In this document: positions 168 to 16,297 of the stretch, one piece after another
How the letters are laid out: every line of letters begins with the position of its first letter
Numbering within the stretch: the stretch's first letter is position 1
Assembly: GCA_016839745.1 (NCBI GenBank)
Contig: JAEOTS010000111.1
Location: 1-16,297, forward strand
Source of the DNA: Promethearchaeota archaeon
GTDB lineage: Archaea > Asgardarchaeota > Lokiarchaeia > Sigyniarchaeales > SOKP01
Reading direction: 5' to 3'
Length of the DNA: 16,297 nt
Program-made: the position numbers and the translations under genes
Notes under the pieces: model-generated
The model's database searches: none
What the model was told of the DNA's origin: nothing
Seen by the model: only the letters and a program-made list of their open reading frames with translations

Positions 168-1424
168 ATGAAAAAAGTAGCAATAATAGGGGTAGGAATT
201 ACTCCATTTAGAGCAAGATATTTGGATAAAACCTATTTCGAGCTCGCTTACGATGCAACTAAACTCGCACTGGAAGATGCAAATAGAAATAATGCTGAAA
301 TTACGCATAACAATATAGAATCTACAGTATACGGTATATATAATGAGTTATTCGAGCGACAATTTATGCCGGATATTTTTACAAATAGTTATTTAGGATT
401 AAATAATAAACCCGGAACAAGAGTGGCAACAGGCGGGGCAACAGGAGGATATACCGTCCGAATGGCATACGCTGAAGTAGCGTCAGGATTAAGCGATCTA
501 TGTCTATGCATTGGTTTAGAGAAATGTAATGATTGTTACGACGAACAGACTGGCGTAACAACCCCCGAAGTCTTAAATGCAATCGCTTATTCCGCTGACA
601 TGACTTACGAATATCCAATGGGCATGATGGCTGCAAGTTCGTACGTTTCAATGGTCAACGCTCATTACGAAGAATTTGGAAATCCAACTGAAGAACAAAT
701 GGCATATGTAAGCGTTAAAAATCACGGTAATGCGATTCTAAACCCTAAAGCACAATCACCTATGCAAGTTACAGTAGAGGATGTAATGAACTCCAGGATA
801 ATTTGTTATCCTTTTAAATTACTTGATTGTTGTCTGTATTCTGAAGCCTCCGCTGCACTTATATTGGCGTCGGAAGAGAAAGTGAAAGAATTAGGTGTTG
901 AAAAACCGATCTGGATTACAGGAGTTGATGCTGCTAATACCGATTGCTTCATTGGGAACCGCGAAGCTATGGGGCGATTGTATTCAAATATTTATGCGGC
1001 AAGAGCAGCGTATAAAATGGCGGGCTTAAATTATAATAATATTAAGAGCCAAATTGACCTTGCCGAGCTTCACGACGCTTTTTCAGGACAAGAGGTGATT
1101 TCGTACGAAGAACTCGGTTTTGTACCTTTCGGGGAAGGAGGTCCATGGATTGAAAAAACCTTCGAAAAACCGGGAGAAGGACCTTGGTTAGAGGGAGAAC
1201 TCCCATGTTGTCCATCAGGTGGATTGATAGGATGCGGACACGCTGTCGGTGCGACGGGAATCATGAGCACGGGGGAGGTTGCCCTTCAATTAAGAGAGGA
1301 AGCGGGTAAACATCAAGTATCTATTACAAAAGGAAGAGCAATTTCTCATTCCATTGGAGGCCCTGGTGCAGCGTATGCTGCGGTAATTGTAATGACAAAC
1401 GAGGAGGGGTTGAAAAAACCATGA
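168..1424 (+). CDS. SCP-x-type thiolase-fold protein lacking the nucleophilic Cys (putative aldolase or atypical acyl-CoA enzyme)
   Basis: Thiolase-family motifs: KVAIIGVG, GLEK, VSVKNHGNAILNPKAQ, ELHDAF, PSGGLIGCGHAVGATG. The usual CASG loop reads VATGGATGG. ATG at 168 is preferred over GTG at 159 because GAGTGA (157-162) sits at RBS spacing and MKKVAIIG is a typical N-terminus. Confidence 0.9.
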   Translation: MKKVAIIGVGITPFRARYLDKTYFELAYDATKLALEDANRNNAEITHNNIESTVYGIYNELFERQFMPDIFTNSYLGLNNKPGTRVATGGATGGYTVRMAYAEVASGLSDLCLCIGLEKCNDCYDEQTGVTTPEVLNAIAYSADMTYEYPMGMMAASSYVSMVNAHYEEFGNPTEEQMAYVSVKNHGNAILNPKAQSPMQVTVEDVMNSRIICYPFKLLDCCLYSEASAALILASEEKVKELGVEKPIWITGVDAANTDCFIGNREAMGRLYSNIYAARAAYKMAGLNYNNIKSQIDLAELHDAFSGQEVISYEELGFVPFGEGGPWIEKTFEKPGEGPWLEGELPCCPSGGLIGCGHAVGATGIMSTGEVALQLREEAGKHQVSITKGRAISHSIGGPGAAYAAVIVMTNEEGLKKP

Positions 1425-1915
1425 GCGAAGAATTTCAAGACCATCAAATTCGGGATGTAATAAAGATTAATTATAAATATACAATGGGTGGACAATCTAA
1501 GTTCTTTATAGAAGTAATGAAAAACAAGAGGCTTTTAGGCACTAAGTGTAAGAAGTGCGGAAAAACTTGGATGCCTCCGAGAATTAATTGTTCAGATTGT
1601 TACGAGCCTGCAGATTGGATTGAACTTAAACAAACGGGAACTATTGAAGTGAGCACAATTGTTTGGTATACAACTTCAGCCTTTATTAAAGCTATACCAT
1701 ATGGTATAGGGTTTATAAAATTGGACGGAGCAGAAACAGCATTACTTCAAGGAATTTTCTCTGAGAATCTAGTTCCTTCTAAAATAAAAAAAGGAAAAAG
1801 AGTTAGAGCAGTATTCAACAAAAAACGAGAAGGAAAAATGACGGATTTCTTCTTTGTTCCTGAGGATGAATATGATAATTGGATATCAAAACCAGAATAC
1901 GAGGGAGGAGTATAA
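1421..1915 (+). CDS. DUF35-type Zn-ribbon + OB-fold protein (thiolase/aldolase partner)
   Basis: CKKC...PPRINCSDC Zn ribbon, then PYGIGFIKLDGA and KRVRAVF OB-fold motifs. ATGA overlap with the upstream gene and a GAGGAGG RBS upstream. Confidence 0.9.
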   Translation: MSEEFQDHQIRDVIKINYKYTMGGQSKFFIEVMKNKRLLGTKCKKCGKTWMPPRINCSDCYEPADWIELKQTGTIEVSTIVWYTTSAFIKAIPYGIGFIKLDGAETALLQGIFSENLVPSKIKKGKRVRAVFNKKREGKMTDFFFVPEDEYDNWISKPEYEGGV

Positions 1916-1917
1916 AA

Positions 1918-2289
1918 ATGGGACCAGCTAAAGAGAATTTAACGAAAATCGTTGAGAGACTGAACCAAAATCCTAAAGCTCAAGCTGTATTTGTCACTAA
2001 TATAGCTGGAAAAGATGTGAATTGGAACATGTCATTCCAATTTAATCTAGATAAAGATGAACCATTCTTTTTGGAAATTAAAAACCGATCGATCTATTTG
2101 TCGGAGTTAAGCAAATCTGATGCAAATATCGTGATTTCAGGAAAATCAGATGCAATTGTGAGAATTTGCGAAGGAAAAGGTGATTTCACTCATGCGATAT
2201 CTCGTGAAGAGATTTCAGTCGAGCGTGGCAAAGTCATGGATGTAATTCGATTTACTCGAGCAATAACAATCGTATTGAAATCCAATTAA
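1918..2289 (+). CDS. SCP2 sterol/lipid-binding-domain-like protein (123 aa)
   Basis: Size and pattern (FQFNL..FFLEIKN...DANIVISG...RICEGKGDFTHAI...ISVERGKVMDV) fit the SCP2 fold. ATG at 1918 follows GGAGGAG, whereas the track start at 1879 overlaps the previous gene. Confidence 0.65.
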   Translation: MGPAKENLTKIVERLNQNPKAQAVFVTNIAGKDVNWNMSFQFNLDKDEPFFLEIKNRSIYLSELSKSDANIVISGKSDAIVRICEGKGDFTHAISREEISVERGKVMDVIRFTRAITIVLKSN

Positions 2290-2307
2290 TATCTATATTA
2301 GTACTTC

Positions 2308-2315
2308 TTTTTTTT
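2308..2315 (+). terminator. Archaeal-type oligo-T terminator of the thiolase-DUF35-SCP2 unit
   Basis: T8 run starting 19 nt after the end of the stop codon (2289). Confidence 0.5.
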
Positions 2316-2357
2316 ACTGTCTATCATTTAAAACGTCTGAATTATTCATCTATCAAT

Positions 2358-2372
2358 CGAAATGTTTATAAA
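2358..2372 (+). promoter_or_regulatory. Putative archaeal promoter (BRE + TATA box) of the ABC binding-protein gene
   Basis: CGAAA-TG-TTTATAAA matches the BRE/TATA consensus. It lies about 85 nt upstream of ATG 2457. Confidence 0.55.
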
Positions 2373-2456
2373 TCTACTGATAACATATTTCTCTATTAAA
2401 CTCTAAATAAAATAAGATAAGATTAATATTAAAGAAAAAAAATAAGTGATTATTAC

Positions 2457-3248
2457 ATGAAAAGAGAATTTGCGGTTTTAGGAATTGTAATCGCTTTGGG
2501 AATAGGTATATTCGGTGGATGGTTTATCCCCTCCCCATTAACCGTACCAGAAGGTCCATCATTGATTTCTACAATCAAAACAAGAGGTACTTTCAATGTT
2601 GGTACGAGTGCAGATTATCCTCCATTTGAAAACTTCACATATCCTTTTACTGGTGCTATCGAAGGCTTTGATGTGGATGTAGCACAGTTAATTGCTGATG
2701 ATCTTGGCGTAACCCTTAATATGATGCATTTAGATTTTGGAAATCTGATTTCCGCTTGTAGCGCTGGCACAATTGACATGGTTGCCGCTGCTATGACATA
2801 TAATGAAGAGCGTGCAGCAAGTCTTGCAGCATCAGTTACTTATATTTCGGTCAGCCAGGTAGTAATTGTCAAAGAAACATCAATACTTACAAACATTAGT
2901 TCCTTAGATGAACTTGGACTATTAACGGTTGGCTGTCAAACTGGTACTGTAATGCAGGACGAGTTGATAGCTGTCGGTAATATTACTGTTAACGCATATC
3001 CTAGCGCAGTTGTGCTCATGACAAACTTAATAAATGATAACGTAGCTGCAGCTTATGTGGATGAACCTGTCTTTGCATCCTATAATAGAACAGAAGACCT
3101 TAGAATAATCTTTAGCACAGGTTCTGAACCTTTAGCGTTCTGGACAAGATACGGAGAACCTGAATTATTATATGTTATGAATAATGCGATCCTCGAAGCT
3201 TATTTAGATGACACAATGTTTACTTTATTCGATAAATGGTTCGGCTGA
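2457..3248 (+). CDS. Polar amino-acid ABC transporter substrate-binding protein (SBP_bac_3 family)
   Basis: VGTSADYPPFE, GFDVDVA, AAMTYNEER, VGCQTGT and C-terminal DKWFG. The N-terminal hydrophobic anchor has no lipobox Cys. Confidence 0.92.
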   Translation: MKREFAVLGIVIALGIGIFGGWFIPSPLTVPEGPSLISTIKTRGTFNVGTSADYPPFENFTYPFTGAIEGFDVDVAQLIADDLGVTLNMMHLDFGNLISACSAGTIDMVAAAMTYNEERAASLAASVTYISVSQVVIVKETSILTNISSLDELGLLTVGCQTGTVMQDELIAVGNITVNAYPSAVVLMTNLINDNVAAAYVDEPVFASYNRTEDLRIIFSTGSEPLAFWTRYGEPELLYVMNNAILEAYLDDTMFTLFDKWFG

Positions 3249-3330
3249 GTGCTTAATCAGGTGTTCAGGATAGTTTTTCAAAGATTTATAATTCCAATCT
3301 GAAGGTTTTAGTTTACTCCTAAAATAAATA

Positions 3331-3339
3331 TTTTTTTTT
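3331..3339 (+). terminator. Oligo-T terminator-like tract between the SBP and permease genes
   Basis: T9 run in the 135-nt intergenic gap. Confidence 0.35.
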
Positions 3340-3383
3340 ATCTAAAATTATAAGATTATATTAAATATATTTTCTTTATTCAA

Positions 3384-4484
3384 GTGATTATATTGTTATA
3401 TCAGACAGAGTTAGATTATATCGGAATGGGGATTGCTAATTCAATCCTAATTTTCCTTATTAGTATCTATATTATTAGATGGTACTCAAAAAAGAAAAAT
3501 ATTCCATCCATTAAACGTTGGGATATTTCTTTTAATAAAAATATTAAAATAAGTTTAATATGGCTTGTTATAAATTTAATAATAGCAATTTCATTTAGCC
3601 TTTTTATTAAAAATATATCTATATACTTTCTAACACAAGTTTCCGTTTATATTTTAATTGATATTTTTATCGGTACTATTATTGTAAGAAATCTATACCA
3701 AAAAAAATTAGCAGAATCATTCAAATTTGTTTTTCCAATTCAGCTTATCCTACTTGGAATAAGTATAATACTGGGATTTATATTAGCAATCCTCTTTGGG
3801 TATATTTTTCCAAAGTTTTCGGATGCCCTATTTTTTATACTTGAATTTGGGTTACTTTCTACATTATTAATTACTGCTTTAAGCTTAATTATTGGATTGG
3901 TGTTAGGGCTATTATTGGCAATTATGCGTGTTTATGGAGGCAAAGAACTTTATTGGTTATCTAGCAGTTATGAAAAGTTATTCCGAGGCATCCCACTACT
4001 TGTTCTAATTTTTATATTCGCTTTTGGACTCCCGGGAATTTTCTGGTATATAGAACCATTAGATAGATTGCTTGCTAGTGTAATTCTCGCCCTTGGAATT
4101 CGAAGCGGGGCATATCAATCTCAAATTTTTCGAGGTGCTATTTTATCTATAAATCCGGGACAAATGGAGGCCGCGAGATCCTTAGGAATGAATAAGATTA
4201 AATCTTTCCGATATATAGTATTACCTCAAGCTTTGCGAATTGCGATACCTGGATGGTCTAATGAATATTCTGTAGTTATAAAGGATACATCCTTTGCTGG
4301 CGCAATTGGAACTTTTGAAATGACACTTATAGCTACTATTTGGGGATTTAGATCTGTTGAACTTTTTACTTTATCAATGGGCGTGGTTGCGGTTTTATAT
4401 TTTCTATTTACATTTCCAGTTACAAATTTGTTTGGTAAACGACAATCGGAAAAACTAAAAAAGTTAGGAATGGGAGGAGGCTAA
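3384..4484 (+). CDS. Amino-acid ABC transporter permease (HisM/GlnP type) with an extra N-terminal membrane domain
   Basis: FRGIPLLV, SGAYQSQIFRGAI, EAA loop GQMEAARSLGM, IVLPQALR, IKDTS. About 147 extra N-terminal residues. The start is uncertain (GTG 3384, TTG 3393 or ATG 3426). Confidence 0.9.
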   Translation: MIILLYQTELDYIGMGIANSILIFLISIYIIRWYSKKKNIPSIKRWDISFNKNIKISLIWLVINLIIAISFSLFIKNISIYFLTQVSVYILIDIFIGTIIVRNLYQKKLAESFKFVFPIQLILLGISIILGFILAILFGYIFPKFSDALFFILEFGLLSTLLITALSLIIGLVLGLLLAIMRVYGGKELYWLSSSYEKLFRGIPLLVLIFIFAFGLPGIFWYIEPLDRLLASVILALGIRSGAYQSQIFRGAILSINPGQMEAARSLGMNKIKSFRYIVLPQALRIAIPGWSNEYSVVIKDTSFAGAIGTFEMTLIATIWGFRSVELFTLSMGVVAVLYFLFTFPVTNLFGKRQSEKLKKLGMGGG

Positions 4485-4486
4485 AT

Positions 4487-5278
4487 ATGGTTGAACCATT
4501 ATTGCGGATATCAGATGTATGGAAATCATACGATGATTTACAAGTTCTTAAAGGAGTTTCATTTGAATTATTGGAACGCGATGTTAAGGTTATTTTTGGA
4601 CCAAGTGGTTCTGGTAAAAGCACATTGCTTCGTTGTATCAATATGTTAAATCCACCGGATAAGGGAGAAATATATCTTCGAGGGAATAATATAACAGCCC
4701 CCAAAGTTGATCTTAATGCAATAAGAACAAGGATCGGTATGGTATTCCAACACTTTAATCTATTTGCTCATCTCAAAGCTATTGATAATGTAAGTATAGG
4801 TCTTCGCCGTGTTAAGGGTTTAAAAAAAGAAGAAGCCTATAAAAAAGCTCTTGAGGCACTAGATCATGTAAGATTAGCTAAATGGGCAGATCATTACCCT
4901 GCACAATTATCAGGTGGTCAACAACAACGAGTAGGCATTGCCCGTGCCTTAGCTATGGAACCTGATGTAATTTTATTCGATGAACCTACTTCAGCTTTAG
5001 ATCCTGAATTAATTGGCGAAGTTCTTCAAGTAATGTTGGATCTTGCTAAAGCTGGAACTACAATGCTAGTAGTTACACATGAAATGGGATTTGCTAGAGC
5101 CGTTGCCTCAGAGTTAATATTCATTGATAAAGGATCAATTATAGAACGAGGTACGCCTGAACATTTCTCGGATTCACCAGAATCTGAACGAGTAAAGCAG
5201 TTTCTTGAAAAGCTCGATGTTCTATATGGAAGTCATGAAAAACTTTTGGATATTTCAGAAGAGGAGGAGAAAGGATGA
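4487..5278 (+). CDS. glnQ: Polar amino-acid ABC transporter ATP-binding protein (GlnQ-like)
   Basis: Walker A GPSGSGKS, Q-loop GMVFQHFNLF, signature LSGGQQQRV, Walker B ILFDEPTSALDPEL, H-loop VTHEMGFA. Confidence 0.95.
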   Translation: MVEPLLRISDVWKSYDDLQVLKGVSFELLERDVKVIFGPSGSGKSTLLRCINMLNPPDKGEIYLRGNNITAPKVDLNAIRTRIGMVFQHFNLFAHLKAIDNVSIGLRRVKGLKKEEAYKKALEALDHVRLAKWADHYPAQLSGGQQQRVGIARALAMEPDVILFDEPTSALDPELIGEVLQVMLDLAKAGTTMLVVTHEMGFARAVASELIFIDKGSIIERGTPEHFSDSPESERVKQFLEKLDVLYGSHEKLLDISEEEEKG

Positions 5279-6048
5279 TTTTTCAAGCGAATCCCATAGA
5301 ACAATTACTCGCTGTATTGGTCTATTGGGATCGTCTCTTCTCGGGTTTTTTATTAACAATGTGGATGTACATTTGGGCTCTTCTAATAGGTTTTTTCCTT
5401 GGGCTCTTATTAGCCCTTTCGCGTCAATATGGTCATTTCCACAGAAAATCTCCAATCTGGTGGTTTCCACTTGATAAAATTTCTACTGTTTATATTGAAA
5501 TTTTTCGTGGTACACCTTTAATCGCTCAACTTTTCTTCTTTTTCTTTCTACCTAATGCTTTGAATTTCTCTCCTGATATAATGGTTATTGAGACTAGTTT
5601 TAATTTTTTTAATACAGAAATCACCCTTAAACTTCTGGATTATCCAATATTTGTTGGTATACTTGCATTGAGTCTTAATAGTGGAGCTTATCAGGCTGAA
5701 TACTTTCGTGGATCCATCATTTCGGTCGGAACTGGACAATTGGAGGCAGCTCAATCAATAGGAATGTCTCGGTTATCAAGTATTAGACACATTGTCTTAC
5801 CACAAGCTTTACGTCGCGTGATTCCATCTTGGTCTAATGAAGCTGCTTACCTTCCAAAATACACGGTTCTAGTTTACTTCATAGGAGGTGTTGAAGAGCT
5901 TTTTTCCCAAGCAGATTTCATTCAGCATAAAACATTTTTTCCACTTACAACATACGTTATTGTCGCAATAATGTTCCTAATTACCATCACACTCATATCA
6001 AAACTTCTAGATGTTATTCATAAACGTACGAGAATTCCAGGATTATAA
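5275..6048 (+). CDS. Amino-acid ABC transporter permease (HisM/GlnP type)
   Basis: YIEIFRGTPLIAQLF, LNSGAYQAEYFRG, GQLEAAQSIGM, IVLPQALR. ATGA overlap with the ATPase gene. Confidence 0.93.
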   Translation: MIFQANPIEQLLAVLVYWDRLFSGFLLTMWMYIWALLIGFFLGLLLALSRQYGHFHRKSPIWWFPLDKISTVYIEIFRGTPLIAQLFFFFFLPNALNFSPDIMVIETSFNFFNTEITLKLLDYPIFVGILALSLNSGAYQAEYFRGSIISVGTGQLEAAQSIGMSRLSSIRHIVLPQALRRVIPSWSNEAAYLPKYTVLVYFIGGVEELFSQADFIQHKTFFPLTTYVIVAIMFLITITLISKLLDVIHKRTRIPGL

Positions 6049-6101
6049 AAAATCATATTTAAAATTTTTATTTGATTTATTCCTTTCTTTTATGATAATA
6101 C

Positions 6102-7151
6102 ATGAAAATTGTTGATCTCCGTTCAGATACAGTAACCAAACCTTCTCCTGAAATGTGGGAATTTATGAAGTCAATGGGTAATTCTCGACTTGGAGATGAT
6201 GTAATGGGAGAAGATCCAACTGTGAATGAATTAGAGGAAAAAGCTGCCAAACTTATCGGAAAAGAAGCTGCACTTTTCGTAAGCTCGGGGACTCAAGGTA
6301 ACTTAGTGTTGCTACTCTCGCAAACAAGACCGGGAGATGAAATATTATTAGAAGAATTAAGTCATATATATGGTCATGAAGTAGGAAGCGCAGCAAGGAT
6401 CGGAGGATTAATGATTAGAACATATCCTTCTAATAAAGGTGTTCCTTCTTTTGATTACTTGCAATCTTTAATTAGAGATAAGGAGGATATACATGAACCT
6501 CCATCATCACTATTGTGCACTGAGAATACTCATAATTACCATGGTGGTACTATAATAAGTATTGATGTATTAAAGAGAATGAAAGATTTTGCATCCAATA
6601 ACAACTTGAAGTTTCACTTAGATGGTGCAAGAATATTTAACGCAGCAATCGGATTGAATGTACCTGTATCTGAGATTACTAAACATGCCGATAGCGTAAT
6701 GTTTTGTCTGTCTAAAGGGCTCTCGTGCCCTGTAGGATCTATTGTAGCTGGTTCCAAAGAAATTATCATTAAAGCAAGGAAGTTTCGGAAAATGCTTGGA
6801 GGAGGTATGCGTCAAGCTGGTATTTTAGCCGCTTTTGGACTTATTGCTCTAGAACCGAAATGGATCAAAAGACTTGACGAGGATCATAGAAATGCGAAAT
6901 TATTAGCTCAAGGATTAAAAAGCTTTAACTTACCCATAAGAGTGCATCCGACAGACACGAATATTGTGATCATTGAGTTGTTAGAAAAGGTTAGAGCTCT
7001 CAAAATTATTACGGCTCTTAATAAAGCAGGTATTTTAGCATTCAATATTAGTAAACAAAAAATAAGGTTTGTCACTCATTATGGTATCACCGAAGACGAT
7101 ATTAACTATAGTATAGAGCAAATTGGGCTTATTTTAAGAGAAAAACTATAA
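6102..7151 (+). CDS. ltaE: Low-specificity L-threonine aldolase (PLP-dependent)
   Basis: DLRSDTVT, GDDV.GEDPTV, SGTQGN, ENTHN, HLDGARIFNA, PLP-lysine motif CLSKGL, GGGMRQAG, IRFVTH. Confidence 0.93.
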   Translation: MKIVDLRSDTVTKPSPEMWEFMKSMGNSRLGDDVMGEDPTVNELEEKAAKLIGKEAALFVSSGTQGNLVLLLSQTRPGDEILLEELSHIYGHEVGSAARIGGLMIRTYPSNKGVPSFDYLQSLIRDKEDIHEPPSSLLCTENTHNYHGGTIISIDVLKRMKDFASNNNLKFHLDGARIFNAAIGLNVPVSEITKHADSVMFCLSKGLSCPVGSIVAGSKEIIIKARKFRKMLGGGMRQAGILAAFGLIALEPKWIKRLDEDHRNAKLLAQGLKSFNLPIRVHPTDTNIVIIELLEKVRALKIITALNKAGILAFNISKQKIRFVTHYGITEDDINYSIEQIGLILREKL

Positions 7152-7200
7152 TTTCCTAGAAATTAATTAATAATATATTGAAGGAGTAGAAATTTGAAAA

Positions 7201-8022: not shown

Positions 8023-8043
8023 TTAAAACACTATTTTTTCTCC

Positions 8044-8083: not shown

Positions 8084-9637
8084 ATGGATGTTATTAATTA
8101 TGACGAAAGCAGAGTAATTTCGACTTTCCCGGTTATAGTAATCGGAGCTGGACTTGGTGGACTCGGTGCTGCATGCCAACTTATTCTTAGGGGAGAAAAA
8201 GTCTTATTATTAGAGAAACACAACGTCCCTGGCGGATTTGCCACCTCCTTTGTGAGAGGTAGATTCGAATTTGAGGGAGCATTGCACGAGTTAAGCGATA
8301 TTGGAACTGAGCATAACAGAGGTAGTCTTTATCGATTTTTGGAGAGATTAGGTGTGGTACCAGAAAAATTGAAATTTACCCAAGTCCCCGAATTTTATCG
8401 GAGCGTGTTTAGTGACGGTTTCGATGTTACCATTCCCCTTGGACTTGAAGGGTATACCGAAAAAATGATTGAGTTATTTCCCTCTGAAAAGCAAGGGATA
8501 GAAAAGTTCATAGCTATGTGTAAAGCAGTTTTAGAAGGCATTAAATACATTGCTTCTAAAGGGGGAAAGTTTTCACCAGCAGAAATGTTAAAAGAACACC
8601 CTTGGATACCACGAATTTCTGGCCTTACATTATCAGAGTTGTATAAGAAATTCTTTAAAGATGAGAAATTGAAAGCCTTGATTTCCCAACTCTGGGGTTA
8701 TATTGGCTTACCTCCTGATAGAACAAACGCATATACGTATATAGCTATGCTCATTTTCTATTTAGAATGGGGGGCTGCTTATCCAATTGGAAGATCGCAT
8801 TCGTTAACAACTGCTATGATTGAATCGTTTGAAGAACGGGGGGGTGAAATAAGATATAACTCCTTAGTCGATCAAATTCTTGTAAAAGATGGAAAAGTCT
8901 CAGGTGTAAAACTCCTCAACGGTGATATATATTTGAGTAAGGCAGTAATTTCGAACGTAAATCCAATTTGCACAACCATGAAGATGCTCCCTCAAGAAGA
9001 TGTACCGGATAGTTATAAAAAAAAGATTTTCGCTCCAGAAATTGGACCATCTGGTTTTTCTGTTTATATAGGTTTAAATGCTTCTTATAAAGAGTTAGGT
9101 TTTACCGCTCATGAAACATTTATTAACGACTTATACGACGCGAATAAGGCTTTTGAGAATTTTACTAAATTGGAAACACCTAAATATATGGTTGCTGCTT
9201 GTTATAATCACATTTACGAAGAAATCTCTCCTCCTGGGACTACACAAATAGTTTTAACAACCCTTCAGATGGGTAAACTTTGGCAAAATATTGCACCAGA
9301 TCAGTATTTCAATTTAAAGGATAAAATAGCTGATGGGATGGTGTCGTTAGTAGAAAATACAATTTGTCCCGAATTTAGAGATTATATTGAAGTAGCTGAG
9401 GCTGCAACTCCATTAACATATTACCGCTATTCTAAAAATCTTGAAGGTGCGATTTATGGAACAACTCAGGATGTTACAAATGGACCTTTACTTCGTTTGA
9501 AAAGTAGGGGACCAATTCCTGGATTATATCAGGTGGGTGCTTGGACCAATTTTGGTGGTGGTTTTTCTACTACTATTCTTAGTGGAAGGATAGGCGCGGG
9601 AGTATACTTAAGCGATAAGATAAAAGGGAGGATATGA
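8084..9637 (+). CDS. Phytoene desaturase/CrtISO/retinol saturase-family FAD-dependent oxidoreductase
   Basis: VIVIGAGLGGL...LLEKHNVPGG dinucleotide fold, FEFEGALH, TPLTYYRY...GAIYG, PIPGLYQVGAWTNFGGG. 517 aa. Confidence 0.88.
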   Translation: MDVINYDESRVISTFPVIVIGAGLGGLGAACQLILRGEKVLLLEKHNVPGGFATSFVRGRFEFEGALHELSDIGTEHNRGSLYRFLERLGVVPEKLKFTQVPEFYRSVFSDGFDVTIPLGLEGYTEKMIELFPSEKQGIEKFIAMCKAVLEGIKYIASKGGKFSPAEMLKEHPWIPRISGLTLSELYKKFFKDEKLKALISQLWGYIGLPPDRTNAYTYIAMLIFYLEWGAAYPIGRSHSLTTAMIESFEERGGEIRYNSLVDQILVKDGKVSGVKLLNGDIYLSKAVISNVNPICTTMKMLPQEDVPDSYKKKIFAPEIGPSGFSVYIGLNASYKELGFTAHETFINDLYDANKAFENFTKLETPKYMVAACYNHIYEEISPPGTTQIVLTTLQMGKLWQNIAPDQYFNLKDKIADGMVSLVENTICPEFRDYIEVAEAATPLTYYRYSKNLEGAIYGTTQDVTNGPLLRLKSRGPIPGLYQVGAWTNFGGGFSTTILSGRIGAGVYLSDKIKGRI

Positions 9638-9640
9638 ATA

Positions 9641-10840
9641 ATGGAAAAAGAAATAATGGAAGACGTTAAAAAATATCAAAAAGCTGAGAAGTTAAAGAAA
9701 AAACGAGACGAAGTCGAACCTTTACCTTGGTATTACGATGGTTTAGAAAACTTATGTAATAGAATCCATCCTGGAAAGCAATTATTGCAGGTTAGTGATA
9801 TTGAATTTCTCTCACGAGACACTAAATTATTTAGATTTATCTCTGCTAAGCCAAATAAGCCCTTAGCACCTTTTCGAGCTGGACAATACATAGGATTGAC
9901 CGTAGATATTAATGGAGTTAGAACTTCCCGTCCTTTTTCACTTGCCAACTCTCCAAATCAACTGTCATATTACGAATTAGGGGTAAGAATAAAAGAAGGC
10001 GGATTCGTTAGCCCATTCCTTATTGAAAACTTAAAGGTAGGAGACATTTTAGAAGCATCTGAACCACTTGGAAATCTTTTCTATAACCCAATGTTTCACG
10101 GAAAAGACTTAGTTTTTATTGCTGGAGGAAGTGGAATAACGCCATTTATATCAATGTTAAGAGATATCAGTGAGAAAAAACTTCCGTTAAATATATGGTT
10201 AATATTTGGTTGTTTAACTGAAAAAGATATATTGTTTAGAAAAGAATTAGATGATATCCAGAAAAGAAGGTCAAATATTAAAACAAGATATATTCTCTCT
10301 GAACCAGATTCTGATTGGAAAGGAGAATGTGGGTTTATCACACGAGATAAAATATTAAATGAAATCGGCACAATTGCAAACAAATATTTTTATGTGGTTG
10401 GTAATCGCGCTATGTACGAATTTGTAAGAGAAGAATTAAATACTCTTGGAATTCCTCAACATCGAATCTATTACGAAGCATTTGGAGTTCCTGACGATAT
10501 TACAAAAGTTATCGGGTGGCCTCAAGAAATAAATTCATCACATAAAATTCAAATTACAGTAGAATATAGACGCAATACATTCAAGGAGAAAATAGAGTTC
10601 GAAGCATTATGTACAGAACCAATTTTAAACAGTCTAGAACGATCGATCAAGGATGAAATCGAGATTGCAAATGCTTGTCGTTCGGGTGAATGTGCTCTTT
10701 GCCGAACAAGAATGATTTCAGGTAAGGTTTTTGTTCCTCCAGAAGTGACAATACGGGAAGTAGACAACAATTTTGGGTTTATCCATCCTTGTATCTCCTA
10801 CCCCCTTACAGATGTCCATTTGGATTTAACATTAACATAG
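9641..10840 (+). CDS. FNR-type FAD/NAD(P)-binding oxidoreductase with a C-terminal plant-type [2Fe-2S] domain (PaaE/KshB-like architecture)
   Basis: FRAGQY, RPFS, GGFVS, IAGGSGITPF, YEAF, and C-x4-C-x2-C-x29-C (CRSGECALC...IHPC). GGGAGG RBS upstream. Confidence 0.9.
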   Translation: MEKEIMEDVKKYQKAEKLKKKRDEVEPLPWYYDGLENLCNRIHPGKQLLQVSDIEFLSRDTKLFRFISAKPNKPLAPFRAGQYIGLTVDINGVRTSRPFSLANSPNQLSYYELGVRIKEGGFVSPFLIENLKVGDILEASEPLGNLFYNPMFHGKDLVFIAGGSGITPFISMLRDISEKKLPLNIWLIFGCLTEKDILFRKELDDIQKRRSNIKTRYILSEPDSDWKGECGFITRDKILNEIGTIANKYFYVVGNRAMYEFVREELNTLGIPQHRIYYEAFGVPDDITKVIGWPQEINSSHKIQITVEYRRNTFKEKIEFEALCTEPILNSLERSIKDEIEIANACRSGECALCRTRMISGKVFVPPEVTIREVDNNFGFIHPCISYPLTDVHLDLTLT

Positions 10841-10909
10841 TTTTTTTTTAATATGAATTTAATTTCAATAACTTTTTTTCAAAAAAGAATAATTAGTAGA
10901 AAAAAAAAA
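10841..10909. terminator. Bidirectional terminator region between convergent genes
   Basis: T9 (10841-10849) directly after the + strand stop. A10 (10900-10909, T10 on the - strand) just after the - strand stop. Central CTTTTTT-TC-AAAAAAG inverted repeat (10872-10887). Confidence 0.6.
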
Positions 10910-10913
10910 TAAT

Positions 10914-11738
10914 TTACTTAAATCGCCATTTCGGTTTAGTTTTCTGCAATTTTGCAAGAGCTCCGGATACGGCATCTTTAGTTTGAAGTAATTGAGAGCT
11001 AACCAAAGTTTCTAATTCAAGCCCAAAAGCTACATCCTTACCATAACAATCGTCAATTAATTTTTTTGTCAATCCTACGGCCAGTGGGGCACTATCAATA
11101 AGTTCGTCAGAATACATTTTAATAATTGAATCTAATTCTTCTGGAGATTTTGCTACTCTATTGACAACCCCAAGCCTGTATGCCTCGTTTCCGTCGAAGT
11201 TCCTTCCTGTTAAAATAATGTCCTTAGCGTTTTGGATTCCACATAGTCTTACTGTTCTAATAGTCCCCCCTACATCTGGATTCATTCCAATCTTTGTTTC
11301 TAACATACTAAAATTCGCGGAATCTAAGCAGAATCTGAAGTCACAAGCGAGTGCTAACTCAAATGCCATACCAAAACAATAGCCGTTAATTTTTGCTATT
11401 ACTGGTTTTTCCATTTTCTCAATTTTAGTAAAAATTGGATGAATCCAAGTATTAGCGAAATATCTAAAGTTACGGGGTACTCTTAAATCCGGAATTACTC
11501 CTTCTGGATCTTTTTCTTGGCCTGTTAAAAAGTTCAAATCAATACCTGCGCTAAAAAAATCATCCCCTCCAGTGATAATAACGACCCTAGTATCAGATCT
11601 TTCTACATTATCTATAGCATTCTGAAGTCCTACCATTAAATCATAATTCAACGCATTTTTTTTTGCTAATCTGTTCATCTTTATTGTTGTTATTGTTCCA
11701 TCTTCATTTTTTTCTATTAAAACTGCCTGTTCATTCAC
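10914..11738 (-). CDS. Enoyl-CoA hydratase/isomerase (crotonase family)
   Basis: MNRLAKKNAL, FFSAGIDL, KPVIAKINGYCFGMAFELALACDFR, LETKIGMNPDVGG. GTG start. Confidence 0.9.
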   Translation of the reverse strand: MNEQAVLIEKNEDGTITTIKMNRLAKKNALNYDLMVGLQNAIDNVERSDTRVVIITGGDDFFSAGIDLNFLTGQEKDPEGVIPDLRVPRNFRYFANTWIHPIFTKIEKMEKPVIAKINGYCFGMAFELALACDFRFCLDSANFSMLETKIGMNPDVGGTIRTVRLCGIQNAKDIILTGRNFDGNEAYRLGVVNRVAKSPEELDSIIKMYSDELIDSAPLAVGLTKKLIDDCYGKDVAFGLELETLVSSQLLQTKDAVSGALAKLQKTKPKWRFK

Positions 11739-11786
11739 AATTTATCATCTTATTAAGTTTATTTATTTATTATACTATAATAAAGG

Positions 11787-11797
11787 AAAAAAAAAAA
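11787..11797 (-). terminator. Oligo-T terminator of the ltp4-ltp3-DUF35-DUF35 unit
   Basis: A11 on + (T11 on -), about 15 nt after the stop at 11813. Confidence 0.5.
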
Positions 11798-11812
11798 TGT
11801 ATTAATTTTTTA

Positions 11813-12262
11813 TTATATTAGTTCAAAATATTCTATATCCAAAATTCTTTTTCTTGGATTTTCTTTAAAAACGGCTTTTACCTTCATCCCTATTTTTAGT
11901 TTTTCTGGATCGCTTTCGTTTATGATATGTACAAAATCTGTGTCAGCACCATCAAGTCTGATAATTCCATAAGCGAACGGCGGTTCTAAAGGCATAACTG
12001 GAGTAGAATGTGTAATAACAGTAAAACCTTTAACAATTCCTTGATTTCCGATCTCAATCCACTCTTCCATTTTTTCAAAACATTCAAAACATATCATTTT
12101 GGGAGGAACGTACACCTTATTACACTTAGGACATTTAACTCCATAAATTTTATTGTTTTTTCCGATTTCGGTTATAAACCGTTCAACATATGCTCCTGCT
12201 GTGTGTTTATAGGGAACTTTAATCCTTCCTCGATACACTTTTTTCTCAATTTCTTGACTCAT
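11813..12262 (-). CDS. DUF35-type Zn-ribbon + OB-fold protein
   Basis: CPKC...PPKMICFEC, PFAYGIIRLDGADT, KIGMKVKAVF. GGAGG RBS upstream. Confidence 0.9.
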   Translation of the reverse strand: MSQEIEKKVYRGRIKVPYKHTAGAYVERFITEIGKNNKIYGVKCPKCNKVYVPPKMICFECFEKMEEWIEIGNQGIVKGFTVITHSTPVMPLEPPFAYGIIRLDGADTDFVHIINESDPEKLKIGMKVKAVFKENPRKRILDIEYFELI

Positions 12263-12279
12263 TATTTTTCCCTCCAGTT

Positions 12280-12768
12280 TTAATCCTCATTTTTTATTAC
12301 TTTATAATATAAAATATCTCCTATATTGCCTTCTCTTTCTTCTTTAAAAACGGCTTCAACGCGTTGACCAACTTTTAGTTTAGTGTAGTCTGTTTCATCA
12401 ACGAAATGCATTGTATAGGTATCAGCACCATCAAGTTTAAATATCGCATAACCATACGGAAATGGGCGTAATCCTCCCGTAGTAGGATCTGTGAACGGAT
12501 AGTTCACAACTGTGAATCCTTCTAAAGTGCCCCTAGGCGATAATTCAACCATATCGTCAATAGTCATTTCAACAAGACATTCGGCACAGACTGCTCTTGG
12601 TGGAGAGTGGACTTTGCCACATTTAGAGCATTTGCTTCCCATTATCTTCTTATTATCCTTTAATTCTTCAAAGAACTTTACTGCTAATTTTCCAATCGAA
12701 TATCTATAAGGTAAATCTGTTTTCCATTTAATTTCAAATATTTTTTCTTGACCTTTTTTTTTGCTCAT
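12280..12768 (-). CDS. DUF35-type Zn-ribbon + OB-fold protein
   Basis: CSKC...PPRAVCAEC, PYGYAIFKLDGADT, KVGQRVEAVF. The GAGGTGA RBS overlaps the upstream stop codon. Confidence 0.9.
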   Translation of the reverse strand: MSKKKGQEKIFEIKWKTDLPYRYSIGKLAVKFFEELKDNKKIMGSKCSKCGKVHSPPRAVCAECLVEMTIDDMVELSPRGTLEGFTVVNYPFTDPTTGGLRPFPYGYAIFKLDGADTYTMHFVDETDYTKLKVGQRVEAVFKEEREGNIGDILYYKVIKNED

Positions 12769-12772
12769 TTTA

Positions 12773-13939
12773 TCACCTCATTGGTTCTTTACCTAGTATT
12801 AAAATTTCAGTCCAAAGACTTCCACCAAAACCCATAGCGAGAGCTTTTTCGACATCTGGCACTTGTCTTTTTTCACCTCGCCCCATAATTTGGGTTGCAG
12901 CTTCGGCTACTCTTACCAAAGCCGTAGCACCAATGGGATTCGTACTCAAAACACCACCCGAGGGATTCACTGGGAATTCTCCACTCATTTGAGTTATTCC
13001 TTCATCCAATAATTTTCCACCTTCACCCGGCTTGCAAAAACCTAACGCTTCTGTCCAAGAAAGCTCGCTCCAAGATGTAGGTTCATAAATTTCTGCTACA
13101 TCTAAATCTTTTATGGGATTATTAATACCCGCTTTTTTATAGGCTTTCTTAGAAGCGATGGTTGCTGTTGGAAGATCGTACATCTTATCGTCAGTTCCAA
13201 AAGTGTAATAATGAGCCGTCTCAACAGCGTGGAACCAAGCAGGATTATCTGTAATCTTTTTTGTTTCTTGCTCGTTAGCGTAAATAAGAGCACAAGCGCC
13301 TTCGCTTTGAGGACAACAATCGTGCAATCTTAAGGGGTAAGATATCATTTGTGAGCTCATAACATAATCAATTGTAATGTTTGGCATCTGTAAGTGAGCA
13401 TATGGATTATTAGCCGCATTGCTTCTATTCTTAACGGTAACCTTAGCAGCTTGCTCTGCTGTGATTCCATACTTAGCAGAATACATACCAGCCATTAAAG
13501 CTAGTGGACCTAACGCTCCAGCTAAGGAGGGCCGTTCCCACACTGGATCGAAAGCTGTAATTATACCTGTTGTAGCTCCGCCCTCATTTAATTTTTCCCA
13601 ACCAATTACTAGAACATTATTATAAATTCCCGAGGCTACATTATGATACCCACAGATTGCTAAAGAACTACCGGTGGTTCCTCCCGTAGCCACTTTTACT
13701 ATGGGTTTTAAATATCCCGGTGCAGCTTCAATTCCACACATCAATTCAGAAAAATTTATTCCTTCAAAATGATCCATATTCCCAATAATGATTGCATCAA
13801 TCTCTTTAGGTTCAAGTTGAGCGTCGTCAAGAGCCATTTTAACTGCTTCGTAAATCATCTCAGGAATGTTTACATCTCTTCTTTTGCTTCTAAATTTTGT
13901 TTGTCCTATACCGACAACGGCTACATCATGTTTAGCCAT
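12773..13939 (-). CDS. ltp3: Ltp3-like thiolase-fold protein (putative retro-aldolase catalytic subunit)
   Basis: GQTKF.SKR.DV, DHFEG, GWEK, NPYAHLQ.P.IT, AEIYEPTSW, PVNPSGGVLSTNPIGA resemble actinobacterial Ltp3 as I recall it. No Cys in VATGGTTG, Tyr replaces the His of HDxF, and Asn replaces the His of GHP. Confidence 0.8.
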   Translation of the reverse strand: MAKHDVAVVGIGQTKFRSKRRDVNIPEMIYEAVKMALDDAQLEPKEIDAIIIGNMDHFEGINFSELMCGIEAAPGYLKPIVKVATGGTTGSSLAICGYHNVASGIYNNVLVIGWEKLNEGGATTGIITAFDPVWERPSLAGALGPLALMAGMYSAKYGITAEQAAKVTVKNRSNAANNPYAHLQMPNITIDYVMSSQMISYPLRLHDCCPQSEGACALIYANEQETKKITDNPAWFHAVETAHYYTFGTDDKMYDLPTATIASKKAYKKAGINNPIKDLDVAEIYEPTSWSELSWTEALGFCKPGEGGKLLDEGITQMSGEFPVNPSGGVLSTNPIGATALVRVAEAATQIMGRGEKRQVPDVEKALAMGFGGSLWTEILILGKEPMR

Positions 13940-13941
13940 CT

Positions 13942-15084
13942 TTATTCACCTCCAAAAATTAACACGCAATTTCCTTGAGAACATATCCCATTCATACCGT
14001 ACGCAAGGCCAGTTTTTGCGTTAGAAATTTGTCTTCTATCAGCTTTTCCCTGTAGTTGTAAAGCAATCTCAGCTACCCTAATTAATCCATTAGCCATGGT
14101 AGGATTGCTGGATAGCACACCTCCAGAGGGATTTACGGGGATTGATCCATTCAATTCTGTTTCACCGCTTTCTATGAACTTACCACCCTCTCCTTTCTCA
14201 CAAAGTCCTAGCGCTTCATAAATCATGAGCTCGTGAGCACTAAAATTTTCGCTTACCTCACATACATCCAAATTTTCTTTAGGATTATTTACACCCGCCA
14301 TTCGATAAGCTTCCTTAGCTGCTAATTCTAACCCAATTAAATCAGTCATGTTTCTATTTCCCAAATAATACGCATCAGTACAACTCCCATAACCTTTAAG
14401 CCAAATAGGATTATCTGTCATTCTTTTAGCAACTTCTTCTTTTGCTAAAAGCATAGCAACAGCTCCATCTGAAAACGGAGGAAAATCTAGTTCTTTCAGA
14501 GGATAAGCCATCATCTTAGAATTGAGTACATCTTTTATAGTGATTTCTTCCCGCAAATGTGCGTAAGGATTGTTGAGGGCATTTTTTCGATTTTTAACCA
14601 CAACCATTGCTGCTTGTTCTTCAGTCACATCGTATTTATTCATATACATGTTTGCCATTAAACCGGCAGAAGAATTTTGATCAAGACCTAAGTGCCTTTG
14701 ATAATATGGATCAAATATCGTGTTATTTACGAGGTATTGGTTAACTTCAGAACATTTACAATGCGAAACTACTAATACAGTATCGTACGACTCTGATAAA
14801 ATCCTCATGGCCCCGTACATAAAAGCAAAAGCACCATCCCCAGAAACCCTTGATTCTGCTTTTCTTACGGCCCCTACAGCATCTTGTATAGCCATGTTTG
14901 CAATTGTTCTCCCATCATTAAAATCATTAGAACCTGTAATTACACAGCCAACATCATCATTATTTATTCCTAAATTGTTATGAAGCTTCTTAACTACCTC
15001 GAATACAAGTTCAGAGTACGTTTGATCTATCTTATCTGCTTCATATTTAGTTTGTGTGCATCCAACTATTGCAATTTTATCCAT
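13942..15084 (-). CDS. ltp4: Ltp4-like thiolase-fold protein (degenerate active site, probable partner subunit)
   Basis: GSNDFNDGR, AESRVSGDG, VKNRKNALNNPYA, PVNPSGGVLSSNP..ANGLIRV. It lacks the catalytic Cys and both His positions (EVSENF, SSNP). It lies 2 nt upstream of the ltp3-like gene. Confidence 0.75.
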   Translation of the reverse strand: MDKIAIVGCTQTKYEADKIDQTYSELVFEVVKKLHNNLGINNDDVGCVITGSNDFNDGRTIANMAIQDAVGAVRKAESRVSGDGAFAFMYGAMRILSESYDTVLVVSHCKCSEVNQYLVNNTIFDPYYQRHLGLDQNSSAGLMANMYMNKYDVTEEQAAMVVVKNRKNALNNPYAHLREEITIKDVLNSKMMAYPLKELDFPPFSDGAVAMLLAKEEVAKRMTDNPIWLKGYGSCTDAYYLGNRNMTDLIGLELAAKEAYRMAGVNNPKENLDVCEVSENFSAHELMIYEALGLCEKGEGGKFIESGETELNGSIPVNPSGGVLSSNPTMANGLIRVAEIALQLQGKADRRQISNAKTGLAYGMNGICSQGNCVLIFGGE

Positions 15085-15107
15085 TTTTAATTCTCTCTTT
15101 TTTTTAG

Positions 15108-15162
15108 TTTATTATAAAAATTAATTATATTATTGATTGATTCATCTATAAAGGCTTTTATA
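15108..15162 (-). promoter_or_regulatory. Candidate promoter region of the ltp4-ltp3 operon
   Basis: On the - strand: AAAAGCC-TTTATAGA (TATA at 15152-15145) and an alternative TTTATAAT (15118-15111). Inverted repeat TATAAA-GGCT-TTTATA at 15147-15162. Confidence 0.35.
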
Positions 15163-15210
15163 ATTGTAATTTAAACCCTAAAATGATTTTAATAATTTTT
15201 ATTGTTTATC

Positions 15211-15245
15211 AAAAAAAAAAGGTATTAAGCTTAGAAAGAAAAAAA
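15211..15245 (-). terminator. Oligo-T terminator after the acyl-CoA ligase gene
   Basis: A7 (15239-15245) and A10 (15211-15220) on +, which are T-tracts on - downstream of the stop at 15251. Confidence 0.5.
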
Positions 15246-15250
15246 GAATA

Positions 15251-16297
15251 TTAATTATTGAAGATTTTACCGGATTTAGTCTCTTCTTCTTCACGAAGTG
15301 GTTGTTTCTGGATTTTCCCCGTAGGAGTTTGAGGTAAACTGTCCCGAAATTCTACATATTTCGGCACTTTAAAATCGGCTAGATGTTCTCTACAATAAGT
15401 GATAATTTCTTCTTCAGTAACCGATTCTCCTTCTTTTAATACTACAAATGCTTTCGGGAGTTCTCCATAGATCTTGTCACGTACTCCAATAACGGTTCCC
15501 ATTGAAACTGCAGGATGAGAATAGATTACTTCTTCGATTTCACGTGGATAAATATTTTCCCCGCCCCGTATAATCATATCTTTTTTGCGATCGGTTATAA
15601 AGAAAAAACCGTCCTCGTCCATGTGACCAATGTCTCCGGTATGTAACCACCCCTCTTTAAGAGTTTCGGCATTTGCTTCTGGATTTTTGAAGTATTCTTT
15701 CATGATATTATCGCCTTTAATAACAATTTCACCTTTAGAGTTTGGTGGAAGATCATTCCCCTTATCATCTACAATTTTCATTTCATTCCCAGGTAAAGGT
15801 ATACCGATACTACCTACTTTTCGCCTATCTTCCGTTTCAGTAGGTAGAGGATTAACTGAAGAAGCACATGTCCCTTCTGTAAGACCGTATCCTTCTACAA
15901 CTTTACAATCAAAAGTATTCTCAAATGCCTTAAACACTTCCACGGGTAAAGGAGCAGCTCCACAAACAATGTATTCTAAAGAAGAAAGATCCAAATTCTC
16001 GTGAGGCATTCTAAGTAAGATAGAAAGCACTGTTGGAACACAACTAAAAGTTGTAGCCTTATATTTTGCTACAGTTTCCCAATGTGTTTGTGCTGAAAAT
16101 CCAGGTGTCAAAATAGAGCTCGCTCCTATTATAAGAGGTGCCATAATAGTGACAATTTGTGCATTACAATGAAATAATGGTAAAATAAGCATAAACCTAA
16201 AGTATTCTTTGGCATTTATAAAATCCCTTATCATTTCAGCATTTCTTCTAATGTTAAAATGAGTTTGTAATACACCTTTTGGAAAACCGGTAGTCCC
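15251..16297 (-). CDS. fadD: Long-chain fatty-acid--CoA ligase (ANL family), 5'-truncated by the window edge
   Basis: The frame is open to the window end, where it reads GTTGFPKGVLQTH (AMP-binding P-loop), so the track's Met at 16234 is internal. Also LPLFH, EGYGLTE, WLHTGDIG, DRKKDMIIRGGENIYPREIEE, LPQTPTGKIQK. Confidence 0.93.
   Translation of the reverse strand, partial: GTTGFPKGVLQTHFNIRRNAEMIRDFINAKEYFRFMLILPLFHCNAQIVTIMAPLIIGASSILTPGFSAQTHWETVAKYKATTFSCVPTVLSILLRMPHENLDLSSLEYIVCGAAPLPVEVFKAFENTFDCKVVEGYGLTEGTCASSVNPLPTETEDRRKVGSIGIPLPGNEMKIVDDKGNDLPPNSKGEIVIKGDNIMKEYFKNPEANAETLKEGWLHTGDIGHMDEDGFFFITDRKKDMIIRGGENIYPREIEEVIYSHPAVSMGTVIGVRDKIYGELPKAFVVLKEGESVTEEEIITYCREHLADFKVPKYVEFRDSLPQTPTGKIQKQPLREEEETKSGKIFNN

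Follow-up and report, generated by a model that had tools for sequence, protein, structure and literature searches.

The 16.3-kb contig JAEOTS010000111.1 of a Promethearchaeota archaeon, analyzed here over its entire length (the window; contig C81 of a 3.5-Mb metagenome-assembled genome (MAG) that is 89% complete), encodes a four-gene module, T3-T2-D2-D3, in which two paralogous proteins with an SCP2-thiolase fold (T3 and T2) are followed by two DUF35 proteins (D2 and D3). The catalytic residues of thiolases have been lost from T2 and T3 throughout their families, as they have from a third thiolase-fold protein, T1, at the other end of the window, and none of the three is, judged by its sequence, capable of being a thiolase. 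The module is conserved in archaea and bacteria and appears from sequence comparison to be a distant, sub-threshold relative of the actinobacterial Ltp3/Ltp4 module. On balance, we favor a reading in which the four proteins would form one α/β complex, most likely a retro-aldolase acting on a 3-hydroxyacyl-CoA. The genes were called from six-frame open reading frames (ORFs) and Pfam matches on the window, and those most relevant to the argument are as follows.

13942-15084 (-): T3, putative β-type Cys-less SCP2-thiolase-fold subunit of the Ltp4-type clade (Pfam Thiolase_N, Thiolase_C_1)
12773-13939 (-): T2, putative α-type Cys-less SCP2-thiolase-fold subunit (TGGTTG, Y285-E-P, N334-P-I)
12280-12768 (-): D2, DUF35 protein with Zn ribbon and OB fold, predicted docking protein (Pfam zf-ChsH2, OB_ChsH2_C; CSKC...CAEC)
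11813-12262 (-): D3, second DUF35 protein, predicted docking protein (Pfam match; CPKC...CFEC)
10914-11738 (-): ECH2, crotonase-type enoyl-CoA hydratase (Pfam ECH_1, 1.9e-43)
159/168-1424 (+): T1, thiolase-fold protein (ORF and Pfam)
1421-1915 (+): D1, DUF35 partner of T1 (Pfam match; CKKC...CSDC)
1879/1917-2289 (+): SCP2-like small protein (Pfam SCP2, E 3.6e-4, a weak match whose 21.3 bits are exactly the cut-off)

Catalytic positions were assigned from alignments to the solved archaeal thiolases 7YVY and 6ESQ (E 1e-33 to 1e-43). The original prediction held that all three thiolase folds lack the nucleophilic Cys, quoting the motifs VATGGATG (T1), VATGGTTG (T2) and VSGDGAFA (T3). All three motifs were found and the alignments bear the claim out, with Gly at the nucleophile position in T1 and T2 and either Ser or Val, depending on the alignment, in T3. 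The motif equivalent to HDCF, which contains the acid/base Cys of SCP2-type thiolases, reads HDAF in T1, YEPT in T2 and SENF in T3, and the His of the GHP motif is retained in T1 only, T3 having NPT in its place. Both catalytic Cys of the SCP2-type thiolases (archaeal acetoacetyl-CoA thiolase, BbsB, SCPx) are absent from T1, T2 and T3. A sequencing or assembly error can be ruled out as the cause, since the replacements are invariant in 73-107 homologues. Normal thiolases with Cys, HDCF and GHP, accompanied by DUF35 genes of their own, are encoded elsewhere in this genome (contigs C136 and C101). Genes of the Cys-less type are throughout annotated as "acetyl-CoA acetyltransferase" or "thiolase", and their cluster names are generic.

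The residues that replaced the thiolase machinery are themselves under strong constraint. All 80 of the T2 orthologues compared (52-100% identity) share G87, Y285, P287, N334, H57 and H243, and 88 positions of T2 are at least 97% conserved across the same set, which together argue for an enzyme rather than a relic. The D-G of the VSGDG motif is likewise invariant in all 73 T3 orthologues. The first residue of the HDCF-equivalent motif of T3 varies (Tyr in 34, Ser in 24 and Phe in 11 of the 73; Ser in the window), and T3 is for this reason probably a structural, non-catalytic partner. Position 1 is Tyr (YDAF/YEAF) in the majority of the orthologues (bacteria and Jordarchaeia), Ser in the lineage of the window and Phe in others. 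The His at the GHP position is kept in bacterial T3 proteins, while those of Asgard archaea have Asn there.

The genes of the module are tightly packed, with gaps of 2 nt between T3 and T2, 4 nt between T2 and D2 and 17 nt between D2 and D3, and the T1 and D1 genes overlap by 4 nt. Such spacing indicates that both T3-T2-D2-D3 and T1-D1 are operonic, in agreement with the predicted 3:3 pairing of thiolase folds and DUF35 genes. All three DUF35 proteins retain the CxxC...CxxC pattern. ECH2 lies 74 nt downstream of D3. A peptide-pattern scan of one genome per species returned at least 599 stretches matching the module, 525 of which encode a relative, and all four genes are found together in every locus long enough to show them. 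Their order is T3-T2-D2-D3 in Loki- and Jord-type Asgard archaea and in a MAG labeled 'Methanobacteriota', and D3-T3-T2-D2 in bacteria, among them Desulfatibacillum alkenivorans DSM 16219, Smithella, Desulfomonile, Syntrophaceae, Anaerolineaceae, Acidobacteria, Nitrospirota and Leptospirales. The module is, in other words, no archaeal specialty but is widespread in bacteria. D2 and D3 are distinct orthologous groups: the D2 orthologue stands after T2 in bacteria and archaea alike, and the D3 orthologue precedes T3 in bacteria. In some Loki relatives the two are fused (proteins P0440-P0443). As the carriers are anaerobes, the module can be taken to work without O2, which upholds the O2-independent operation proposed originally.

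Gene content and, in the case of T3, phylogeny connect the module to Ltp3/Ltp4. The plasmid of a Tsukamurella carries, in one row, a crotonase passing the cut-off of the EchA19 equivalog, a ligase, a double-DUF35 protein (309 aa), a PRK07937 (Ltp4 family) protein (593 bits) and a PRK08313 (Ltp3 family) protein (734 bits). The layout is that of the echA19...Rv3521-ltp4-ltp3 region of Mycobacterium tuberculosis (listed in PMC6429209), and Ltp3-Ltp4 has been described as a heteromeric aldol-lyase (PMC6678751). Like this actinobacterial system (Rv3523/Rv3522/Rv3521 type), the window has two adjacent paralogous genes for Cys-less SCP2-thiolase folds, two DUF35 units, and a crotonase and an acyl-CoA ligase as neighbors. 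T2 also has the Ltp3-type α signature Gly/Tyr-x-Pro/Asn-Pro-Ile-Gly-Ala, which reads TGGTTG/YEP/NPIGAT in T2 and TAGSVG/YVP/NPIGAS in the Tsukamurella PRK08313 protein. The PRK07937 model matches T3 more strongly than it matches T2. The differences are considerable: identity is ~40%, D2 and D3 are encoded separately and both have an intact Zn ribbon, while in Actinobacteria the two units are fused and one ribbon is lost, and the hosts are strict anaerobes and archaea. In addition, sterol catabolic genes were not seen in the genomic island around the window, ECH2 is no EchA19 equivalog, and BKACE, a β-keto acid cleavage enzyme, is a recurrent partner of the anaerobic module.

Trees were computed with FastTree (148 rows) and IQ-TREE (69 rows). 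With its EchA19, PRK07937 and PRK08313 matches all above cut-off, the Tsukamurella plasmid cluster represented the actinobacterial system in them; the comparison with Ltp2, Sal, BbsB, SCPx and the Ltp3/Ltp4 proteins of M. tuberculosis and Rhodococcus relied on PDB alignments and NCBIfam models only. The Cys-less proteins form one clade (support 98 in FastTree, 99 in IQ-TREE), within which T3 and the Ltp4-type PRK07937 protein of Tsukamurella share a β clade (97 in FastTree, SH-aLRT 99 in IQ-TREE). T2 and the Ltp3-type protein fall into one α clade (96) in FastTree only. In the phylogenetic comparison suggested with the original prediction, the two trees agree on T3 and differ on T2. T1 forms a clade of its own. 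The inference of retro-aldolase-like proteins survives for T2 and T3 with their two DUF35 partners, which resemble Ltp3/Ltp4 in gene content, in signature and in the tree position of T3; it does not extend to T1, which belongs to a separate family.

In the mechanism that we envisage, T2 and T3 would associate as a heteromer that is stapled by D2 and D3 and incapable of thiolysis. T2, probably the catalytic subunit, would hold the active site, with Gly at the nucleophile site and Tyr285 at the position of the Ltp2/Sal base, within a retained thioester-binding framework; other invariant polar residues of T2 are His57, His182 and His243. ECH2 would make the 3-hydroxyacyl-CoA substrate, which the complex would then cut into acetyl- or propionyl-CoA and a carbonyl compound, a retro-aldol step for which neither CoA, NAD+ nor O2 would be needed. 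The reaction would take place inside a ~50-kb island of acyl-CoA catabolism that comprises ligases, crotonases, a short-chain dehydrogenase/reductase (SDR), an acyl-CoA dehydrogenase (ACAD), BKACE and a second Cys-less pair.

The comparison with characterized systems supports this mechanism in part. The retro-aldolases of steroid side chains, Ltp2-ChsH2 (PDB 6OK1) and Sal-Shy (PDB 9MYR), likewise combine a thiolase fold devoid of the nucleophilic Cys with a DUF35 partner. Their catalytic base is the Tyr of YDHF in Ltp2 or of YDCY in Sal, and Sal carries Gly at the former nucleophile position (PMC12329534), as do T1 and T2. The invariant Tyr285 of T2 occupies the same motif position as this base, the rest of the motif (YEPT) being different. 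Ltp2 and Sal are homodimers whose DUF35 domain is fused to a MaoC hydratase (ChsH2, Shy), whereas the window encodes an α/β pair with free DUF35 proteins, and T2 is less similar to them in sequence and fold than to true thiolases. The solved archaeal thiolases (6ESQ) are the best overall match of T2 in sequence (E ~1e-42) and fold and resemble it in having an adjoining DUF35 gene, but they keep Cys, HDCF and GHP and perform Claisen chemistry; no HMG-CoA synthase was detected among the ORFs and Pfam matches of the window. The top PDB sequence match of both T2 and T3 (E ~1e-47) is another archaeal protein, ST0096 of Sulfolobus tokodaii (PDB 4YZO, 'thiolase-like protein'), in which Ser replaces the nucleophilic Cys and which, unlike T2 and T3, retains both His (HDMA, GHP); a literature search for ST0096/4YZO found no function or paper. 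PhlABC/MucABC is more remote: the SCP2-thiolase-like PhlC, only a distant match (E 1e-17 to 1e-21), has a catalytic Cys88 and is joined by a KAS III-like PhlA, and the window has neither an equivalent Cys nor a KAS III-like gene.

Several observations weigh against a retro-aldolase. Neither catalytic acid of the two known aldolases is present in T2, which has Pro287 in place of Cys304 of Sal and Asn334 in place of Tyr344 of Ltp2, and the hydratase in the window is a crotonase, whereas Ltp2 and Sal work with one of the MaoC type. The AlphaFold2 model of T2 (pLDDT 89.9, SCP2-thiolase fold) has a Foldseek TM score of 0.92 to the thiolase 6ESQ vs 0.85 to Ltp2 and 0.83 to Sal; being closer to true thiolases, the fold lends the aldolase reading no support. 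The family matches fall short as well: PRK08313, the top NCBIfam model of T2, reaches 380.6 bits, under its cut-off of 514, and PRK07937 gives 203.8 bits for T3 vs a cut-off of 419. The α type is not one clade in IQ-TREE, which splits it into two unresolved groups. No in vitro assay of any α/β-type member, Ltp3/Ltp4 included, was found in the literature searched. The aldolase label draws on genetics and analogy; searches for an anaerobic thiolase-like retro-aldolase likewise gave no assay of the T2/T3 family. Finally, a simple retro-aldol step leaves the recurring link of the module to BKACE unexplained.

In archaea, BKACE genes neighbor the module at Loki- and Jord-type loci and in the 'Methanobacteriota' MAG; in bacteria they do so in Anaerolineaceae, Desulfomonile and Smithella. 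A 474-aa protein of a Spirochaetae bacterium (P0444) consists of a D3-type DUF35 OB domain, which matches D3 at 46% identity along its full length, fused to BKACE. The fusion and the proximity of the genes together suggest that BKACE docks to the complex. A hypothesis for its role is that it would re-thioesterify a β-keto acid product with the just-released acetyl-CoA, for which a carboxylation step would be required; no carboxylation gene was seen among the 25 neighbor families listed for 31 non-Loki loci. From here a broader scheme can be drawn, which we put forward tentatively and consider rather unlikely as a whole: anaerobes of both domains, namely Asgard archaea and syntrophic and sulfate-reducing bacteria, might share a thiolase-independent way of shortening blocked acyl chains, for instance β-alkyl-branched or isoprenoid-derived ones, by means of an α/β retro-aldolase, DUF35 staples and a docked BKACE, with T1-D1-SCP2 contributing another step. 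Acetyl-CoA would be released and the carbonyl or β-keto acid product passed to BKACE, to be re-thioesterified without ATP.

Judged by its sequence, T1 represents a separate Cys-less family, characterized by Gly/HDAF/GHA and distinct from T2/T3. The family occurs in Asgard archaea, Thermoplasmatota, Nitrospirota and others, and Gly/HDAF/GHA is invariant in 107/107 homologues. T1 retains both oxyanion-hole His and has no Tyr at the HDCF-equivalent motif. Family members carry GHAVGATG, and Cys126 is present in 104/107 homologues. A substitute nucleophile in the CCPSGG motif was ruled out, the position varying between Cys, Asn and Ser within the family. A fusion protein of 593 aa, P0428, combines a T1-family part (55% identity to T1) with an entire DUF35 (Zn ribbon and OB), which supports a physical pairing of T1 with D1. 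D1 is syntenic and the SCP2-like gene is conserved after it in the relatives examined; in the window, a GGAGG precedes the ATG of that gene at 1917.

The ORFs and Pfam matches confirm the gene list given originally (ligase, two crotonases, SCP2-like protein, CrtI-like/reductase pair). The remaining genes of the window are the following.

2457-6048 (+): amino-acid ABC transporter of the basic-amino-acid type, four genes (SBP_bac_3, two permeases, ATPase)
6102-7151 (+): GntG/threonine-aldolase-type pyridoxal phosphate (PLP) enzyme (GntG family 387 bits, above cut-off)
7201-8022 (+): ECH1, crotonase heading the ECH1-CrtI-FNR unit (Pfam ECH_1, 5.1e-49)
8084-9637 (+): CrtI-family FAD oxidoreductase, distant member (crtI_fam 139.5 bits vs 238 cut-off)
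9641-10840 (+): FNR-type FAD/NAD(P)/[2Fe-2S] reductase (Pfam FAD_binding_6, NAD_binding_1, Fer2)
15251-16297 (-): acyl-CoA ligase truncated at its 5' end where the contig stops, leaving the C-terminal 348 codons (Pfam AMP-binding, AMP-binding_C)

The CrtI-like protein has CrtI itself as top PDB match (4DGK, E 2.8e-27), and the reductase gene, starting 3 nt past it, encodes a PaaE-like protein (131 bits, under cut-off). The top NCBIfam model of ECH2 is EchA19, at 160.8 bits far under the cut-off of 400, and the ligase is of the PRK06187 type (393 bits). The first 127 nt of the window (1-127) are identical to the last 127 nt of contig C59, and its last 127 nt (16171-16297) to the first 127 nt of contig C14; C59, C81 and C14 join through these assembly k-mer overlaps into one stretch of ~50 kb, in which the C81-C14 join restores an intact ligase ORF of ~516 aa. 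Beyond the ligase, C14 encodes an SDR (781-1656, -), ~0.6 kb past the window end, a BKACE (1837-2727, +), two more DUF35 genes with a second Cys-less α/β pair (2830-6260, -) and then an ACAD (6438-7772, +), giving the joined island five Cys-less thiolase folds and five DUF35 genes in total. The two thiolase-like proteins of the second pair group together in IQ-TREE, outside the α and β clades, through either long-branch attraction or independent duplication. An old-yellow-enzyme-type FMN oxidoreductase (10621-11769) lies at the end of C59, directly upstream of T1; an NMO/FabK-like reductase, a class-III aminotransferase and another crotonase are located further upstream.

Close homologues are labeled Promethearchaeota or Promethearchaeia (Loki-type Asgard archaea), and some of the MAGs Hod- or Hermodarchaeota. 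Within the genus, T1-D1-SCP2, ECH1 and ECH2-D3-D2-T2-T3 stay inside 15-22 kb on long contigs. ECH2 adjoins D3 in the majority of Loki-type loci; in Jordarchaeia and most bacteria it does not. The ABC transporter and the PLP aldolase are present in some relatives and not in others, as is the CrtI/FNR pair, which is absent from the close relative G008 and from Jordarchaeia. Located between the two lipid arms of the window and varying in position as well as in presence, the transporter and the PLP aldolase have the appearance of insertions with no connection to the thiolase-like genes. In relatives, another acyl-CoA ligase precedes ECH1, and further genes of their islands encode an iron-containing alcohol dehydrogenase (Fe-ADH), a luciferase-like oxidoreductase, an additional SCP2 protein and a further thiolase-like/DUF35 pair. 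Of all this, Jordarchaeia possess the four-gene module alone, accompanied by a CoA transferase and BKACE. The linkage in relatives that was expected is therefore real for T3-T2-D2-D3, which is kept across Asgard archaea and bacteria, whereas the T1 arm, CrtI/FNR, the transporter and the PLP aldolase are linked to it only in the Loki-type lineage, and variably so.

Outside the Loki-type lineage, a census of the 31 loci listed CoA transferase (12 ORFs), true thiolase (9), ligase (8), TetR (6), ACAD (4), MaoC (4), the CrtI-like amine-oxidase fold (Amino_oxidase; 4), BKACE (3) and 3-hydroxyacyl-CoA dehydrogenase (3HCDH; 3) among the module's neighbors. The set fits catabolism of some acyl-CoA and names no substrate. 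A two-subunit family-I CoA transferase flanks the module in a Jordarchaeia locus (L074) and in the 'Methanobacteriota' MAG (L087), where 3HCDH, BKACE and ACAD are further flanking genes, and an LplA/B-like protein adjoins the module in Jordarchaeia. In a Smithella locus (L099, 1117-14355), two α/β modules stand next to each other, flanked by two CrtI-like flavoproteins, one of them 34% identical to that of the window, and by a Caroten_synth (PF04240)-like protein. With this locus, a CrtI-like gene has been found beside the module twice, independently.

The original prediction had gone further and proposed phytanyl, sterol or hopanoid substrates. Here, β-methyl-branched isoprenoid acids (phytanoyl- or phytenoyl-CoA) or sterol/hopanoid side chains would be ligated, dehydrogenated and hydrated to a tertiary 3-hydroxyacyl-CoA, from which retro-aldol cleavage would yield acetyl-CoA and a methyl ketone, bypassing α-oxidation. 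The Ltp3/Ltp4 type is genetically tied to C24-alkyl sterol side chains, and reviews state on genetic evidence that Ltp3-Ltp4 acts on C24-branched ones. The genetic phenotype behind this tie was reportedly described by Wilbrink in 2012. Most Loki-type loci, as well as Smithella, have CrtI-family flavoproteins close to the module, in Smithella with the Caroten_synth-like gene, and the four Amino_oxidase neighbors in bacteria and the presence of SCP2-like genes point the same way; a true thiolase adjoining the module in nine bacterial loci would fit alternating normal and blocked cycles of β-oxidation. No isoprenoid-, sterol- or hopanoid-specific gene was found in the island, however, and ECH2 is a generic crotonase (160 bits vs 400 for EchA19). 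A ketone or acyl-CoA carboxylase was not seen among the neighbors, and the CrtI/FNR unit is missing from G008 and Jordarchaeia. The missing 3-hydroxyacyl-CoA dehydrogenase, on which the original argument drew, gives no clue either: the window indeed holds no 3HCDH or SDR, but an SDR is encoded on C14 and at least 10 3HCDH genes are present in the genome. The proposed substrates are thus left with no supporting evidence from the island, and we regard this pathway as unlikely.

It is less probable again that T2 and T3, and T1 with them, are pseudo-enzymes, that is, scaffolds that bind CoA esters and channel substrate to BKACE, to a true thiolase or to a hydratase. All classical catalytic residues are gone, T3 has no conserved residue at the catalytic motif, and DUF35 proteins are known scaffolds, as between thiolase and HMG-CoA synthase; the D3-BKACE fusion and the adjacent true thiolases of bacteria would suit such a role. 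Tyr285, His57, His182, His243 and Asn334 of T2 are nevertheless invariant at or near active-site positions across domains, two thiolase-sized proteins would be costly for a scaffold alone, and the relatives Ltp2 and Sal are active aldolases.

Least probable among these alternatives is a biosynthetic role, in which the complex would work in the condensing direction, building chains by adding acetyl-CoA to an aldehyde or ketone in an aldol reaction, or would perform other enolate chemistry such as decarboxylation of a malonyl- or β-keto-type CoA ester. Archaeal thiolase/DUF35 complexes do drive condensations, slow decarboxylation of malonyl-CoA has been observed for TbSLP, T1 still has the His/His pair by which thioester enolates are stabilized, and Fe-ADH lies near the module in relatives. 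The neighboring genes (ligases, CoA transferases, ACADs, TetR, true thiolases) form a catabolic set, however, and CtSal has no malonyl decarboxylase activity. Lysine fermentation, brought to mind by BKACE, the CoA transferase and the basic-amino-acid ABC transporter, was rejected, since neither an aminomutase nor a diaminohexanoate dehydrogenase was seen, and both the transporter and the PLP aldolase are inserts whose presence differs between relatives.

Reconstructions of the metabolism of Asgard archaea and syntrophic bacteria count the genes described here as thiolases of β-oxidation or of the mevalonate pathway, yet the gene products, as far as the residues tell, cannot be thiolases. The conservation of the module, the invariant Tyr of T2 and the DUF35-BKACE fusion make the question of their function directly testable by heterologous expression. 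In keeping with the original statement that no characterized archaeal example was known, none turned up in the literature searched. Branched lipids, among them isoprenoids, sterols and hopanoids, account for large pools of recalcitrant carbon in anoxic sediments. If T3-T2-D2-D3 is indeed a retro-aldolase, it would provide strict anaerobes with a redox-neutral, CoA-independent cleavage of C-C bonds, and would extend to archaea and anoxic sediments a type of enzyme that has so far come from aerobic steroid degraders.

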